Source of the DNA: Patescibacteria group bacterium | GTDB taxonomy: Bacteria > Patescibacteriota > UBA1384 > 2-12-FULL-50-11 | Direction: 5' to 3' | DNA: 61,807 nucleotides | Assembly (NCBI GenBank): GCA_040900165.1 | Contig: JBBDZM010000009.1 | Span: 18,636 to 80,442 of the forward strand | Shown: positions 3,662 through 58,721 of the stretch, one piece after another | How positions within the stretch are numbered: position 1 is the stretch's first letter | Layout of the letters: each line of letters begins with the position of its first letter | The notes under the pieces: model-generated | The model's input: only the letters and a program-made list of their open reading frames with translations | What the model was told of the DNA's origin: nothing | Databases searched by the model: none | Made by a program: the position numbers and the translations under genes

Positions 3662-4915
3662 ATGGCCATTTCACCATTTAGCGCCGCCCTAAACCAACTA
3701 GCCGACGAGCGAGGACTACCCCGTGAGATTATCGTGGAAGCGATTGAATCGGCCGTCGGTGCCGCTTATCGCAAAGACTACGGCAACCCCGACCAAGAGA
3801 TAATTTCGCGCTTAAACGATGAAAGCGGCCAATTCGATATCTTCCAGGTATTTGATGTTGTCAAGGAGGTGGAAAACGAGCACGCCCAGCTAACACTTAA
3901 GCAAGCCAAAGAAATGAAAAAAGGCGCAAAGCTCGAGGACAAAATCGAAATTGAGCTCGAGCCCCACACAGAATTTGGCCGTATTGCTGCCCAAACTGCC
4001 AAGCAGGTTATCTCTCAGCGCCTACGTGAGGCCGAGAAAGAAATACTTTATGCCGAGTACAAAGAAAAACAGGGCCAGCTAATTAACGGCTACGTCCAAC
4101 AGATCGAGGGACCAAACGTTATTATGAACATCGGTAAACTTAACGGCCTGATGATTGCCTCTGATCAAATTCCTAACCAACATTACTACGCTGGCCAGCG
4201 CTTAAAAATCCTGGTCTACAACGTCGAAGAAACCCCGCGCGGTCCCCGCGTTCTGGTAACCCGCTCCAGCCCCGACTTTATTAAAAAGTTATTTGAGTTG
4301 GAAGTTCCAGAAGTCGCCGCCGGCAACGTGGAAGTGAAAGTAATTGCCCGAGAAGCCGGAACCCGAACCAAAATGGCCGTTATCTCCAACCAACCCGGGC
4401 TCGACCCGGTCGGCTCATGTGTCGGTCAGCGCGGCAGCCGCGTTCAGGCCGTTATTAGCGAGATTGGCGATGAAAAAATCGATATTATCCCTTGGAAAGA
4501 AGACACCGAAGGATTCTTAATCGAAGCCCTTAAGCCAGCGTTAATCGAAAAAATCAAACTCTCTAAAAAAGAGCTGCGAGCAACTGTGACTGTTCCGGAA
4601 GATCAACTATCTCTAGCGATCGGTAAGAACGGCCAGAATGTTCGCTTGGCTAGCAAACTAATTGGCTGGGAAGTCGATATCGTCAAAACCGGCGAGGACA
4701 AGCGCCCGGAAAGAGCCGAGCGAGTAGAAACACCGGCACCAACCGAAACTCCAGCACCAGAAGTGAGCGAAAAAACCGCAGTTGTCGAACAAGTAGAAAC
4801 CGCCGAAATTGTCGAGACCGAACCGCCAATGCCAACGGACAAGGCGATCGATGCTCAGACTCCCGAAGACCAAGTCGCCGAGCAAGAGCAGGTGGCCGAC
4901 GAAGCCAGTAAGTAA
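3662..4915 (+). CDS. nusA: Transcription termination/antitermination factor NusA with an acidic C-terminal tail
   Basis: NusA N-domain, S1 and two KH segments (GLDPVGSCVGQRGSRVQ, LSLAIGKNGQNVRLASKL). Pro/Glu-rich tail. Confidence 0.95.
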   Translation: MAISPFSAALNQLADERGLPREIIVEAIESAVGAAYRKDYGNPDQEIISRLNDESGQFDIFQVFDVVKEVENEHAQLTLKQAKEMKKGAKLEDKIEIELEPHTEFGRIAAQTAKQVISQRLREAEKEILYAEYKEKQGQLINGYVQQIEGPNVIMNIGKLNGLMIASDQIPNQHYYAGQRLKILVYNVEETPRGPRVLVTRSSPDFIKKLFELEVPEVAAGNVEVKVIAREAGTRTKMAVISNQPGLDPVGSCVGQRGSRVQAVISEIGDEKIDIIPWKEDTEGFLIEALKPALIEKIKLSKKELRATVTVPEDQLSLAIGKNGQNVRLASKLIGWEVDIVKTGEDKRPERAERVETPAPTETPAPEVSEKTAVVEQVETAEIVETEPPMPTDKAIDAQTPEDQVAEQEQVADEASK

Positions 4916-53460: not shown

Positions 53461-54237
53461 CTAGCGTGAACCAGAGCCGGAGCTGCCACCACCGCCTCCA
53501 CCGGCTGCCCCGGAAGAACCGGAGCCGCCCGAGCCGGATGTACCGGCGCCGGAGGTCGGGGTTACAGCGGTTGAGGACGTGCTGGCCGCGGCGGCGGCTG
53601 CCGCTGCAGCAGCGCCGTAACCGTTAGCGCTGACGCGCGAGTTGTTGAACGAGAACCCTGGGATCCCGTTGAGGACCGGTGTGATGACCGTTGGCGGTGC
53701 CATCTGCCCGACATAGCTGATCTGCGACCCGTGGATAAAGACGGGCAGCCATCGATCAACGTAATCTGTCTTGTATTCGGTCCTGTACTCGACCGGACCG
53801 GGTACGTCGACCCTGTAGGGTACTGGGATGTACTCGGTATCGCCCTTGATCTTGATGATCTTATCTCGCTCGACGATTTTTTCTTTCTCCACAACAACCC
53901 GAATCAAATCGGTCCAGTTGCCGCAAGCAAGAATCACTAGGCGATTGTATTCGTCCCAGGCCGCCCAAGTCCCGGCTTTGTGCCATTGGGGCTTGGTGTG
54001 CTCACCGTTGGCGCCATACATCGCCGTATAGACGTCCTCGGGTAACTGGAACGGTGTCCAACCACGCGCTTTTGCCTGCTCCGGCGTAACGCCACCCTTA
54101 ATCATCGGGTTGCGGCCGTAGGTCGCATACTTGCGCTGGGAAGGGTTAGTCAGGTCGGGGTTTTGGGCAAAGCCCATCACCCCGAGAACGACGAGAAGAA
54201 CTATGGCGGCAAGCCGCCCTTTTGCTGTGTGTTTCAT
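53461..54237 (-). CDS. Secreted hypothetical protein with a poly-Ala and Gly/Ser-rich C-terminal tail
   Basis: Signal/anchor RLAAIVLLVVLGVMGFA. Tail AAAAAAAAAASTSS...GGGGGGSSGSGSR. Its ATG overlaps the upstream stop (ATGA). Confidence 0.65.
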   Translation of the reverse strand: MKHTAKGRLAAIVLLVVLGVMGFAQNPDLTNPSQRKYATYGRNPMIKGGVTPEQAKARGWTPFQLPEDVYTAMYGANGEHTKPQWHKAGTWAAWDEYNRLVILACGNWTDLIRVVVEKEKIVERDKIIKIKGDTEYIPVPYRVDVPGPVEYRTEYKTDYVDRWLPVFIHGSQISYVGQMAPPTVITPVLNGIPGFSFNNSRVSANGYGAAAAAAAAAASTSSTAVTPTSGAGTSGSGGSGSSGAAGGGGGGSSGSGSR

Positions 54238-55412
54238 CGTGCCTCTTTGAACTTGATTTCCTTGGTCGTACCGCCCACCGTAATGAGCAATTTGCCGGTT
54301 GGTTTTTGACCTCGCCCGAGAGTGAGATTAACCAACGCCGAGTAGATCGGACCATCCGGTGTGTCGGCGCGACCGTTTTTGTAAACGTGACGCTGGCCAT
54401 CGGACGAAACGTACTCAATCTTCATCTCTTCTCTCGAAAAGATTAGGATCGCCACGCCGTCCCCATTGTTGGGAACGCCGATTGTGTCGCCCTGATGCGG
54501 TTGCTGTTCGCTGGCCCTAAGGGCCAAATGACGCATAATCGCATCTTTGTCGCCGACCTTGCGGTCAACGTCATCGTAGCGATAGACGTGGATTTCAAAC
54601 AAAGAATTGCGCTCGGTCGATAGATCGGGCGGGCTCTGTTTGATTTGGTAGCCCTGGCCGCCCCAACTGGTGTTGGCTTGGCCTTGACTGCCCTGAACTG
54701 GCGGCTCTTGGCGCTGGAAGCCCTGCTGTTGCATGGCGGCCAATTCCAACTGCATCTGCTCAAGCGACGCGAAGTTACGGACTGTTCCATCTGGCAAAAG
54801 AGCAGTGAGTGACTGCCACGCAGGCGTCATACTTGCTCCCCCACCAGTTGCCGCCAATCGGTTTAGTTCCGATTGAAAGGCCCGGATAAAGTCCGCTTCG
54901 TTTTGGCGTGAGAAGATCGCAGTACCCCATTCGCCACGTCCACCTAGGACCTTGAATTGGTGGACGCCGATTGGGATATCCCGAGCTCTGATGAATGGGT
55001 AGCCATCAATGACACCCTTGGCACCGATGATCTTCTTTTTTGAGAAGGACCAGTCGCCAGAGTCAACGTCGCGGAATGCGATCATTTGGTCGTCCAAGTA
55101 GTATTTCAGATCACGAGGCGGCGGACCGCTCGTGAAAGCTTTCACCTGGAAGACTATGTCGTCGGGCCAGTATGTCAGAGTTGGAACACGCGATGCCGGC
55201 CAAACGCCAAGGTAGTGGAGGTTGCCCTCACTGTCCTCACGATAGACATCGCATTCAATTGCCAGCGTTCCGATTTCGTCACGCTGGCTGTTAGCCAGGG
55301 CGCTGTTGGCGATGCCACCAAACAGCAGTGCTCCGAGTTCCAGAAGCTGGGCCGGTGTCGCTGAGGCGAACATCAGGCCCAGCAAGATAACGAGAATTTT
55401 GAAGTTTTTCAT
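54234..55412 (-). CDS. Secreted hypothetical protein (two domains joined by a Gln-rich linker)
   Basis: Signal peptide MKNFKILVILLGLMFASATPA follows gagagg. No motif recognised. Confidence 0.65.
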   Translation of the reverse strand: MKNFKILVILLGLMFASATPAQLLELGALLFGGIANSALANSQRDEIGTLAIECDVYREDSEGNLHYLGVWPASRVPTLTYWPDDIVFQVKAFTSGPPPRDLKYYLDDQMIAFRDVDSGDWSFSKKKIIGAKGVIDGYPFIRARDIPIGVHQFKVLGGRGEWGTAIFSRQNEADFIRAFQSELNRLAATGGGASMTPAWQSLTALLPDGTVRNFASLEQMQLELAAMQQQGFQRQEPPVQGSQGQANTSWGGQGYQIKQSPPDLSTERNSLFEIHVYRYDDVDRKVGDKDAIMRHLALRASEQQPHQGDTIGVPNNGDGVAILIFSREEMKIEYVSSDGQRHVYKNGRADTPDGPIYSALVNLTLGRGQKPTGKLLITVGGTTKEIKFKEAR

Positions 55413-55959
55413 AACTGTATCGCCTCTCGCATACTGACTTTTTCTTGTCAGTACCGTCTCAGCCAGGAAAAGGGAAGGAGGGAAATTGCCGTAGATAGCA
55501 AGCTATCAATAGTGGCAACTCTCCCTAATCCCAGCCGAGACGGTACTGACAAGTTACTCTCTCCAATTTGCCCGCAACAAATTCGGTAGAAAAAGTTGCG
55601 GGCAAGTTGGAGGGGGCGAACTCTTGCGAGCTCGCCCCTAGGTAGACATGACAAAAGATTGATGGAGGTGGGGGCACCTGGCCCACCACCTCCAGTTCGC
55701 GCGCTCTGGAATGAAGGAACACTAGGACAGGTTGACTACACCTGCAGTAGGCGCACCTACTTTCGTCCGTTCGATCCGCCAATGGCGGAGGTATTTCGAA
55801 TGACATTATCCCTTTGCCGTTGCAGCCCCATGGGTCTAGGAACGATGAGCGCGCTTAAAAAGCGTTTTGAGGTTACCCTCTAATCCATTAATAGCACTGC
55901 TACAAATGGGTTGGAAGGGGCGACGCGTTCGAAAATGCGTCGCCCGGGCTGTGTCCCCC
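55413..55959. other. 547-nt non-coding, hairpin-dense region
   Basis: 17-bp perfect inverted repeat 55444-55460/55537-55553. 18-bp stem 55561-55578/55595-55612. Stems at 55613-55638, 55664-55693, 55747-55760, 55776-55788 and 55918-55945. Only non-protein-like ORFs. Confidence 0.6.
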
Positions 55960-56616
55960 CTACGAAGAGAGGACGGGCTCATAATGTTCGACGGCCTTTT
56001 TGAGTTCGTCTAGACAGTCTTCGGCTATGCCACCGCCGAACAACTCTAATAGCTCCGGGAACTGTGTCTCGTGCATACGAGACAATAACCCCCATTCTGG
56101 CACTGCGTTCCCTTCAGGGTCGAAGATTGTGTACCATCCGTCCATAGACAGGATAGTCCAATCTTGCCCCTTGTCTTCTAAGGAGCCAAGGTAAAGGCTG
56201 ATCACGCGGTTCCCGACTGTTCGGGACTGCATGGTCATCTGAACAACGTAACCCCTGCAGACGCCCCAGGAGTTGGGCTCTATGTCAAACCCTACCCGGT
56301 ACACCACCCGGCCACCCGGGCTTGCGTATGTCCACCCGTTGCCTGTGTGGTGCCATGCAAGAGCCCTGTCGGTGTATTCCGACCCTGGGTGGTCGCCCCT
56401 CCGAATTGCTTCTTCCGCATTGTAGCGGGATTCAGCGTCGAGCATGCATCGCATAATTCTGCGATGCATGTCATTGCCGCCATGCAACTCGTTGCTACTC
56501 TCGTAAAGGTCTTGCGGGGTGATGGCGAAGGCCCACCCGTGCGCTAGAGCGCGGGCAACCATCGTAATAATGGTTAACATGCTTAGGGGCAGTTGGTTGA
56601 TTGTTTCTGTGCTCAT
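55960..56616 (-). CDS. Hypothetical cytoplasmic protein
   Basis: ATG 56616 follows ggagtg. 218 aa, no signal peptide, no motif recognised. Confidence 0.55.
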   Translation of the reverse strand: MSTETINQLPLSMLTIITMVARALAHGWAFAITPQDLYESSNELHGGNDMHRRIMRCMLDAESRYNAEEAIRRGDHPGSEYTDRALAWHHTGNGWTYASPGGRVVYRVGFDIEPNSWGVCRGYVVQMTMQSRTVGNRVISLYLGSLEDKGQDWTILSMDGWYTIFDPEGNAVPEWGLLSRMHETQFPELLELFGGGIAEDCLDELKKAVEHYEPVLSS

Positions 56617-56747
56617 ATTCACTCCAATCCACCTGCATATATAAATGTAGGCGCGTTGGAGAGAACAAGATGTTAAGGTTCGGCCGCTTTTGGGAGATTG
56701 CTCATTAGACGCAACCCTCACAGCCGTGTCCGTTCATTAGACGGCAC

Positions 56748-56852
56748 CTTCAAAGAAAACAAAAAGCACTTGCGGTTATGCCGGAAACATCCAGCGACCG
56801 CGTTTCTACCGCTGCGGTTGGGCAAGTGACAATCTATGTTTTTGTTTTTGAA
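56748..56852. other. Long imperfect hairpin between cysS and the accessory genes
   Basis: cttcaaagaaaacaaaaagcacttgc ... gcaagtgacaatctatgtttttgtttttgaag. Confidence 0.4.
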
Positions 56853-56931
56853 GAACACTGTTGCATACTGCAACCGTATGCCGGGATATTAGCATATGTT
56901 ATTAATAAAGTCAATACTTTGAGGGTATTTT

Positions 56932-58448: not shown

Positions 58449-58721
58449 CTACGCCTCGTCGTCAAACGAATCGTGACGATAATCCTCGTCGTTTTCTTCG
58501 TGCTCTTTACTAGCAAGCGCCTCTAGCGATTGGGTGCCAGCACCCGCGTCATCAACACCGACACTACTGTCCAATTCATCGTCTTTGAGATTTTCTGGGT
58601 TTGGCTCAACGTTGTCGTCCAATACAATCATCTTGCCGCCGCAGTTAGTACAGGTGTCGTTATCGACCGGTGTGGTCTGACCGCAGGACTCACAGACAAA
58701 TAGTTTTTCGTCGTCTGACAT
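58449..58721 (-). CDS. Zinc-ribbon protein with an acidic tail
   Basis: CESCG...CTNCG, followed by a D/E-rich C-terminus. Confidence 0.55.
   Translation of the reverse strand: MSDDEKLFVCESCGQTTPVDNDTCTNCGGKMIVLDDNVEPNPENLKDDELDSSVGVDDAGAGTQSLEALASKEHEENDEDYRHDSFDDEA

Follow-up and report, generated by a model that had tools for sequence, protein, structure and literature searches.

We analyzed a 61,807-nucleotide (nt) stretch of DNA (the window, hereafter) from a Patescibacteria group bacterium (contig JBBDZM010000009.1 of assembly GCA_040900165.1), concentrating on a 547-nt spacer at positions 55413-55959 that contains a conserved structured RNA, here termed the leader, ahead of a gene for a secreted protein. 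The assembly to which the window belongs (G000) spans 590 kb in 20 contigs and is 93% complete. Because both flanking open reading frames (ORFs) lie on the minus strand, the spacer separates a single stop codon, that of ORF 55960-56721, from a single start codon, that of ORF 54234-55412. The features most relevant to the analysis are, in 5′ to 3′ order on the minus strand:

55443-55554, minus strand: conserved structured leader RNA of ~112 nt (minimum free energy -68.5 kcal/mol, z -11.2), with covariation and covariance-model matches
55413-55442, minus strand: linker from the leader to the start codon, with a Shine-Dalgarno (SD) sequence, GAGAGG, predicted from the sequence at 55428-55423
54234-55412, minus strand: cargo gene for a 392-amino acid (aa) secreted protein with a signal peptide, two immunoglobulin (Ig)-like beta-sandwich domains and a Q/P-rich linker

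The minus strand of the spacer folds with a predicted energy of -260 kcal/mol, against -178 ± 5.9 kcal/mol for dinucleotide shuffles (z -13.96), and the plus strand with -247 kcal/mol (z -11.2); the major hairpins, each tested alone, are also significant (z -3.9 to -11.2). A BLAST comparison with 40 relatives divides this structured region in two. Query positions ~31-142, corresponding to 55443-55554 of the window, are conserved, and the remainder matches within the genus only. The spacer is thus probably composite, formed by a ~112-nt conserved leader RNA and ~430 nt of genus-specific hairpins around small inserted genes. The original prediction had offered, as one of three options, that the entire region was a structured 5′ untranslated region (UTR) or non-coding RNA controlling a secreted-protein operon. 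That option is supported for the first ~112 nt only, where class-wide conservation, covariation, the strand of the gene and a position 31 nt upstream of the start codon speak for it; the remaining ~430 nt are conserved no further than the genus.

The basal helix predicted for the leader comprises 25 bp, the inner 13 of which (GUCUCGGCUGGGA / UCCUGGCUGAGAC) include G·U pairs, and is followed in order by a 3x3 loop, a GGGA/UCCC helix, a bulged CCCUCCU, the helix GAGUUGCC/GGCAAUUU and a variable apical hairpin. In an alignment of 15 sequences from the window's family the inner arms are invariant and the outer and apical parts vary; in total, 13 paired positions and the internal loops are invariant within the family. 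The conserved core sets an SD-like purine tract, GGGA-NNN-GGGAGAG, opposite a pyrimidine tract, CCCUCCUUCCC-NNN-UCCU, and in it the SD-like GGGAGAG faces the anti-SD-like CCCUCCUU. The 16S rRNA has the 3′ end CACCUCCUUUCU, and CCUCCUU corresponds to seven of its bases. The pairing register of the core differs among families and folds, and the CCCUCCU heptamer is bulged in the family consensus. Within the linker, GUCAGUA (55438-55432) is complementary to UACUGAC (55453-55447) on the 3′ strand of the basal helix. This pairing could constitute an alternative structure, and a counterpart is present in G002, one of three other genomes of the window's genus considered here (G001, the sister species, G002 and G003).

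Comparison of the two strands consistently favors the minus strand for the leader. RNAalifold assigns it -58.9 kcal/mol on the minus strand and -34.5 kcal/mol on the plus strand, and the covariance model scores it at 130 and 54 bits, respectively. The inner helix, 5′-GGCUGGGA / UCCUGGCU-3′, contains three wobble pairs, all of them invariant within the family. In a wider alignment of 38 sequences from many families, one U·G pair of this helix is invariant (38/38) and the G·U pairs flanking it are found in 30 and 27 sequences. Since these pairs would become A·C mismatches on the plus strand, the leader is read on the minus strand.

The same alignments provide the covariation evidence that the original prediction had proposed to seek in relatives, and pairing is conserved in both. 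Compensatory changes affect 17 of the 40 pairs predicted in the family alignment. Across families, standard pairs occupy 94.7% of the cells of the 38-sequence alignment and 22 of 28 basal pairs have changed on both sides, values that were reached by none of 500 shuffles. The covariation score is 0.61 for the true structure, compared with 0.12-0.17 when pairing partners are slid by one to three columns.

Of 18 family genomes, 17 gave a BLAST match to the leader, in each case at a single site and with 76-93% identity. Among 151 genomes of the class, a first covariance model recovered it in 63 and a second model (R2), built from the wider alignment, in 93, at one locus each and with lengths of 94-169 nt; in other classes of the phylum, R2 found it in none of 144 genomes. 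A pattern scan of public genomes located the leader core in Candidatus Berkelbacteria records, including the complete genome CP011213.1 and MEZX01, which belongs to the same family as the window, as well as in BroJett034, a Patescibacteria group bacterium of the same genus, and in metagenome-assembled genomes (MAGs) labelled Saccharibacteria or Saccharimonadales. The core also occurs on two contigs, JBJMGP010000185.1 (locus L096) and CAZXKH010000218.1 (L107), deposited as Pyrinomonadaceae and Clostridia MAGs, respectively; both are probably mis-binned Patescibacteria.

The Rfam scan suggested in the original prediction matched no family. Rfam 15 returned nothing at gathering score across the whole window or at the leader in 20 loci of diverse families, and its only hits in the spacer region (E ≤ 10) were sub-threshold matches to microRNA-type models, as is usual for long hairpins. 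A literature search found no description of the motif, and the Southlakia paper contained nothing relevant to it. On this comparative evidence, which is strong, we regard the leader as a previously uncatalogued RNA motif of a familiar general kind, which appears to be kept throughout a Berkelbacteria-type class of Patescibacteria ahead of a secreted-protein gene that itself changes fast.

The genomic context of the leader bears on its function. The gene immediately preceding the leader is cysS, in the same orientation, at 13 of 16 family loci and at 19 of 33 loci from other families; at most family loci, 77-160 nt separate its end from the leader. A sigma-70-type promoter, defined as TTGACA-17-TAnnnT with at least 9 of 12 consensus matches, was found 19-100 nt upstream of the leader in ~33 of 42 loci. 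On the other side, ~40 of 44 loci have, within ~20-100 nt, an ORF on the same strand that encodes a signal-peptide protein of 300-500 aa. The proteins encoded by these ORFs fall into at least eight clusters unrelated by BLAST, three of them inside a single family, and the leader is therefore more conserved than its cargo. Convincing terminators between leader and ORF are rare. Taken together, the promoter, the same-strand secreted-protein ORF and the rarity of terminators constitute the signature of the 5′ leader of a secreted-protein mRNA.

In the window, a word-indexed homologue search with the 392-aa cargo protein returned only two sequences, and neither this protein nor the flanking proteins matched Pfam, NCBIfam or PHROG. 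Its AlphaFold2 model (predicted local distance difference test score 63) shows two beta-sandwich domains and a disordered Q/P-rich linker, for which Foldseek reports Ig-fold domain pairs; the likeness is generic only, with TM scores of 0.18-0.3. Further upstream, between recR and cysS, a 90-aa ORF (58449-58721, minus strand) has a weak N-terminal match of the RadA/zinc-ribbon-like type (E 0.025).

Additional short elements accompany the leader in its relatives. In several distant families (for example at loci L055, L058, L060, L063 and L070), a small AAGGAGG-loop-CCUCUUUUU hairpin, the U-run of which is part of the basal helix, lies between the promoter and the leader, directly 5′ of the latter, and could be an attenuator or a second RNA domain. 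In family loci L010-L023, the leader has a conserved short motif on either side. One is CGUACGUUAAG, with the palindrome CGTACG inside, which directly follows the -10 box, where the transcript is predicted to start. The other comes after the leader hairpin, where GUUUACAU was noticed; ~20 nt past the leader, (G)UUUACAU or GUUAACAU follows a small ACGC-loop-GCGU hairpin. These motifs may represent an operator, a site of RNA pairing or a weak terminator. GUACAUUA recurs upstream of the leader in some other families.

In the reading that we prefer, with a probability of roughly 0.6 for the explanation of the composite spacer as a whole, the leader would act in cis, as the 5′ part of an mRNA that encodes a variable, secreted, Ig-like surface protein, and would affect the stability of that mRNA, the initiation of its translation, or both. 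In most relatives, transcription would start at the sigma-70 promoter that follows cysS, ~15-90 nt before the hairpin, and would be expected to continue into the downstream gene, given that no convincing terminator follows the leader. Once transcribed, the 25-bp basal duplex would be long enough for RNase III, an enzyme encoded in the window's genome, and is a plausible substrate for it or, alternatively, a 5′ protective stem. The pyrimidine tract left bulged in alternative registers could mask the real SD sequence of the gene or bind a factor. The leader may thus operate as a stabilizer or by masking or presenting the ribosome-binding site, and a protein partner may also exist, because 13 of its paired positions are invariant within the family.

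Several observations weigh against this interpretation. No good promoter stands next to the leader in the window or its genus, and expression there would consequently need read-through past terminator-like hairpins. Several family members present a weak 4-5-bp hairpin and a U-rich tract ~20 nt past the leader, which could end a discrete small RNA. The complementarity between the leader CCUCC and the downstream SD is a generic anti-SD match, which fits all readings alike, and ~160-nt variants of other families keep the pyrimidine tract and do not always keep CCUCC. Lastly, the 13 invariant paired positions exceed the needs of a simple stabilizer and hint at a specific partner.

Some of these points would be natural if the leader were instead an independent, trans-acting small RNA with a housekeeping or regulatory role, processed or terminated before the next gene and working with a protein or RNA partner, a possibility that we consider unlikely and nonetheless worth serious attention. 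The neighboring gene would then be variable only because small-RNA genes are hot spots of gene turnover. An RNA of this sort could be expected to have its own strong promoter, as the leader does at most loci, and to occur once per genome across the class with greater conservation than the protein that follows. It would also give meaning to the weak hairpin-plus-U tracts of some family members and to the invariant internal loops and paired positions, which suggest a specific partner. However, most loci offer no convincing terminator, the start codon is only 20-100 nt away, a same-strand signal-peptide gene is found in ~40 of 44 loci, and the known housekeeping RNAs of such shape are excluded, with null results for signal recognition particle (SRP) and 6S RNA models and absence of Ffh and FtsY (PMC4508563).

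The rest of the spacer requires a different explanation from the cis-acting leader. The stems listed in the original prediction are all present at their coordinates, the larger ones in an inverted-repeat search and the small hairpins at 55747-55760 and 55776-55788 in minimum-free-energy folds. The inverted repeats are:

55444-55475 / 55522-55553: I1, outer 17 bp perfect
55561-55578 / 55595-55612: I2, 18 nt, 94% complementary
55613-55623 / 55628-55638: I6
55663-55674 / 55683-55694: I4
55918-55929 / 55934-55945: I5

The mixed strand preference that had been read from their wobble pairs is borne out by the folding energies: the 18-bp stem favors the plus strand (-34.1 kcal/mol, versus -30.5 kcal/mol on the minus strand) and the 11-bp stem the minus strand (-22.4 versus -17.2 kcal/mol). 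Relative to the leader and to the genes further upstream, the hairpins and associated features are arranged as follows:

55561-55612, minus strand: H2, hairpin of the UCCAAC...UUGGAG type, directly 5′ of the leader (-30.5 kcal/mol, z -8.7)
55613-55638, minus strand: H3, GC-clamp hairpin of 11 bp with a GCAA loop, abutting H2 (-22.4 kcal/mol)
55650-55694, minus strand: H4, terminator-like hairpin GGAGGUGG...CCACCUCC with the U-rich tail UCAAUCUUUUGU (-25.7 kcal/mol)
55697-55877, minus strand: moderately structured filler with small hairpins (one at 55747-55760 with a UGCG loop, one at 55776-55788, and a GAGG-GUAA-CCUC hairpin)
55878-55916, minus strand: H2′, degenerate UCCAAC...UUGGAG copy that aligns with the family, with GGAG changed to UAGAG and no ORF after it
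55918-55945, minus strand: H8, GC-clamp hairpin of 9-12 bp, 14 nt past the stop of the orphan ORF, no U-tract
55960-56616, minus strand: orphan ORF of 218 aa from AUG 56616, between the ancestral promoter and the leader
56622-56661, minus strand: M1, UCCAAC...UUGGAG hairpin whose 3′-arm GGAG is the predicted SD of the orphan ORF, 5 nt before its AUG; conserved in G002
56886-56914, minus strand: ancestral promoter immediately behind the stop codon of cysS (TTGACT-17-TAATAT, TG-extended)

The position of the promoter is informative. In other genera of the family the promoter lies 19-35 nt from the leader, and in the window the family-type promoter at 56914-56886 lies ~1.3 kb away; therefore, ~1.3 kb have been inserted between promoter and leader. 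The promoter of the window is followed by CAUACGGUUG, which resembles the CGUACGUUAAG of the family. All four genus genomes have an expanded promoter-leader interval (window 55561-56914; loci L110 in G002, L111 in G001 and L112 in G003), with completely different content in each. In the window it contains the orphan ORF, which the program-made ORF list extends to a GTG at 56721 and for which we take AUG 56616 as the real start; it has no Pfam, NCBIfam or PHROG match and no homologue in 162 genomes of the class. In G002 it contains four small ORFs that are unrelated, among them a PurS-like one and one for a small membrane protein.

Each G002 ORF is preceded by a module made up of a variable GC-rich hairpin, a conserved imperfect 5′-(C/U)UCCAAC...(G/A)UUGGAG-3′ hairpin, 5-10 nt and the AUG, an order that makes the 3′-arm GGAG the SD for whichever ORF follows. 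Such hairpin modules recur ahead of the inserted ORFs in G002, G001 and G003. When 11 copies of the UCCAAC...UUGGAG family are aligned, 92.6% of cells are paired and 10 of 16 pairs covary, and in the four genus genomes searched the family is found at this locus only. The window has three copies: M1, followed by the orphan ORF; H2′, followed by no ORF; and H2, followed by the leader. These hairpins may sequester the SD of the next ORF, to judge from their pairing and position.

The other half of the module can be followed in the same way. H4 has a 73% match in G002 (C3:46368-46423), where it is related to the GC hairpin before module M4, and H8 matches the GC hairpin before module M2 of that genome at 85%. 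The site of H3 is kept in position and not in sequence, with different GC hairpins there in G001 and G002. A direct repeat, D1, which links 55606-55619 to 55910-55923 (UCGCCCC[C/U]UCCAAC on the gene strand), marks the junction of a GC hairpin and the next UCCAAC hairpin. H3, H4 and H8 are accordingly predicted to be the GC-hairpin halves of repeated modules. As for terminator features, H4 has a U-rich tail and H3 and H8 do not; a terminator scan called none of the three. H2 shows four compensatory changes between the window and G001, and its loop motif, UCUACCGA, is conserved within the genus.

The stretch 55697-55915 folds with a z of -3.06. For the filler that it encloses (55697-55877), neither BLAST nor tblastx (against genus relatives and own genome) detected anything similar in relatives or elsewhere in the same genome, and the filler is probably what is left of a small gene that was lost. 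The array of the window would then comprise one surviving inserted gene (55960-56616) and, within 55697-55916, one or two that decayed and left their hairpins behind.

The array of the sister species includes a short gene resembling a transfer-messenger RNA (tmRNA), at 4143-4325 on the minus strand of L111 (~663142-663324 of contig C1 of G001). ARAGORN reports it as 183 nt long with the tag AKSERGSSSWENA*, and RF00023 matches it with 75 bits over only 138 nt; its repeated 3′ end (TTCCCGGCGCCTCCACCA) follows the gene. It may be the footprint of integration at a tmRNA-like site, or a mini-tmRNA. ARAGORN found no tRNA or tmRNA in the window, and the tmRNA of the window's own genome, which is carried by contig C20, bears no relation to the spacer.

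A further option of the original prediction, a recombination or binding-site cluster, is unproven. Since the hairpins outside the leader form a repeated, locus-restricted family around unrelated small genes, we keep a role at the DNA level as a reading, and a doubtful one. It would make the UCCAAC...UUGGAG hairpins, and possibly the leader, the recombination sites of an integron-like gene-capture array below a fixed promoter. Conserved imperfect hairpins do separate small ORFs that are unrelated, promoterless and co-oriented; the arrays of four congeners have wholly different contents between conserved flanks (the cysS promoter and the leader), and the hairpin family is confined to one locus. 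At their ends (YYCCAAC...GTTGGAG) the hairpins recall attC core sites, RYYYAAC...GTTRRRY, with (C/U)UCCAAC...(G/A)UUGGAG matching 6 of 7 positions at each end. On the other hand, no integron-type integrase was found, and the single tyrosine recombinase (PF00589) of each genus genome is encoded on another contig or in another region. The hairpins are shorter than attC sites (38-60 nt) and do not show the unpaired central spacer, extrahelical bases and L box of those sites, their stems being continuous save for one or two 1x1 mismatches. No cassette was found at a second location, and the GGAG that the 3′ arm places 5-10 nt before each AUG is fully explained by a translational role.

In its broadest form, this reading, which we also think improbable, would turn the locus into a gene-capture and expression platform peculiar to these bacteria of the candidate phyla radiation (CPR): the post-cysS promoter would drive promoterless genes in an array ending in the leader, which would control a swappable surface protein. 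The attC-like hairpins might then double as ribosome-binding sites, with cassettes exchanged at them without a canonical integron integrase, a suggestion that we hold just as loosely.

It is very improbable that the leader is a divergent SRP (4.5S) or 6S RNA missed by the Rfam models, even if it is a single-copy hairpin ~110 nt long with conserved internal loops and neither RNA is detectable elsewhere in the window's genome. The SRP models RF00169 and RF01854 gave no match at E ≤ 10 in G000, in 19 family genomes or in the spacer, and the leader does not have the GNRA-capped domain IV motif. The Ffh M domain (PF02978) was found in none of 41 relatives and none of 81 genomes sampled across the phylum, FtsY was absent in lineage searches, searches for the SRP GTPase (PF00448) in five near-closed genomes returned only P-loop-level matches, with no SRP-type GTPase, and no ORF of G000 contains a DTAGR motif. 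We therefore reject SRP RNA, since the phylum, in the genomes sampled, is without Ffh; loss of ffh and ffs has been published for Parcubacteria (PMC4508563). As a separate observation, the lack of a detectable Ffh M domain, SRP-type GTPase and SRP RNA extends that published loss (PMC4508563) to the Berkelbacteria-type class, in the genomes searched. For 6S RNA, there is no RF00013 match, and the largest internal loop of the leader is a 7-nt bulge, without the large central bubble typical of that RNA.

Two other candidates were rejected. The leader is not a CsrA sponge, because the genome encodes no CsrA, and it does not encode a small peptide: a 68-codon frame is open in the window and broken in relatives, and apical indels are not multiples of three. 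Finally, the original prediction had proposed that the first 110 bp were a miniature inverted-repeat transposable element (MITE) with 17-bp terminal inverted repeats, prompted by a perfect 17-bp inverted repeat around 76 nt, but this is refuted for practical purposes by a search that found no second copy in the 590-kb genome (self-matches only), by the single locus that each of the 93 matching genomes carries, by a syntenic position shared across families, by supposed terminal repeats that are the covarying arms of an RNA helix kept by compensatory changes, and by flanks without target-site duplications.

Patescibacteria, or CPR bacteria, are mostly uncultured. To our knowledge, almost nothing is known of their non-coding RNAs or of how they control the surface proteins used for life on host cells. 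A single-copy RNA that covaries across a class and precedes a repeatedly replaced secreted Ig-like gene would mark a conserved expression site for host-interaction proteins. The leader offers a small target for structure probing, reporter assays and a new Rfam family, and a way to locate, in these genomes, the surface-protein locus that varies most. The variable array that hairpins bound in one genus provides a second, smaller lead on gene acquisition by reduced genomes.

Comparison with known systems delimits both elements. Like MITEs and the repetitive extragenic palindromic (REP) and BOX palindromes, the spacer hairpins are stable inverted repeats in intergenic DNA; those elements are dispersed, whereas the leader has a single, syntenic site in each genome and the other hairpins are restricted to one locus. 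The leader is like the bacterial small SRP RNA (4.5S, RF00169) in being single-copy, ~110 nt long and widely conserved and in forming a long, irregular hairpin whose internal loops are conserved, but it matches neither RF00169 nor RF01854, has different conserved motifs and occurs in a lineage without Ffh or FtsY. Arrays of integron attC sites, including clusters of attC sites lacking an integrase (CALIN), likewise place imperfect palindromes, with ends of which YYYAAC...GTTRRR is reminiscent, between unrelated, promoterless, co-oriented ORFs served by one promoter and differ in content between close relatives. Here there is no IntI, and the sites are shorter, have no central spacer or extrahelical bases and overlap what appear to be functional SDs.

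Closer parallels are found among RNA elements. Hairpins that sequester the SD and RNA thermometers (ROSE, fourU) resemble the UCCAAC...UUGGAG hairpins in pairing CUCC with the SD GGAG, and the leader likewise pairs an SD-like with an anti-SD-like tract. Known thermometers are much less stable than the UCCAAC...UUGGAG stems (-15 to -30 kcal/mol), which are tandemly repeated at one locus, and the sequestered GGGAGAG of the leader, in contrast to those elements, is not the SD of any ORF. Stabilizing or processing hairpins in 5′ UTRs include those of the Escherichia coli ompA 5′ UTR, the RNase III-site stabilizer of Bacillus SP82, the STAB-SD of cryIIIA and the long 5′ UTRs of S-layer genes. The leader is comparable to them as a stable stem-loop near the promoter, at the 5′ end of the mRNA for a highly specialized secreted or surface protein; it too contains an SD-like purine tract where translation does not start, and a duplex long enough to suit RNase III, so that a stabilizing role may be suggested. 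Those elements are short and conserved at the level of species or genus, whereas the leader keeps a near-invariant internal sequence and its G·U pairs across a class while its cargo is replaced.

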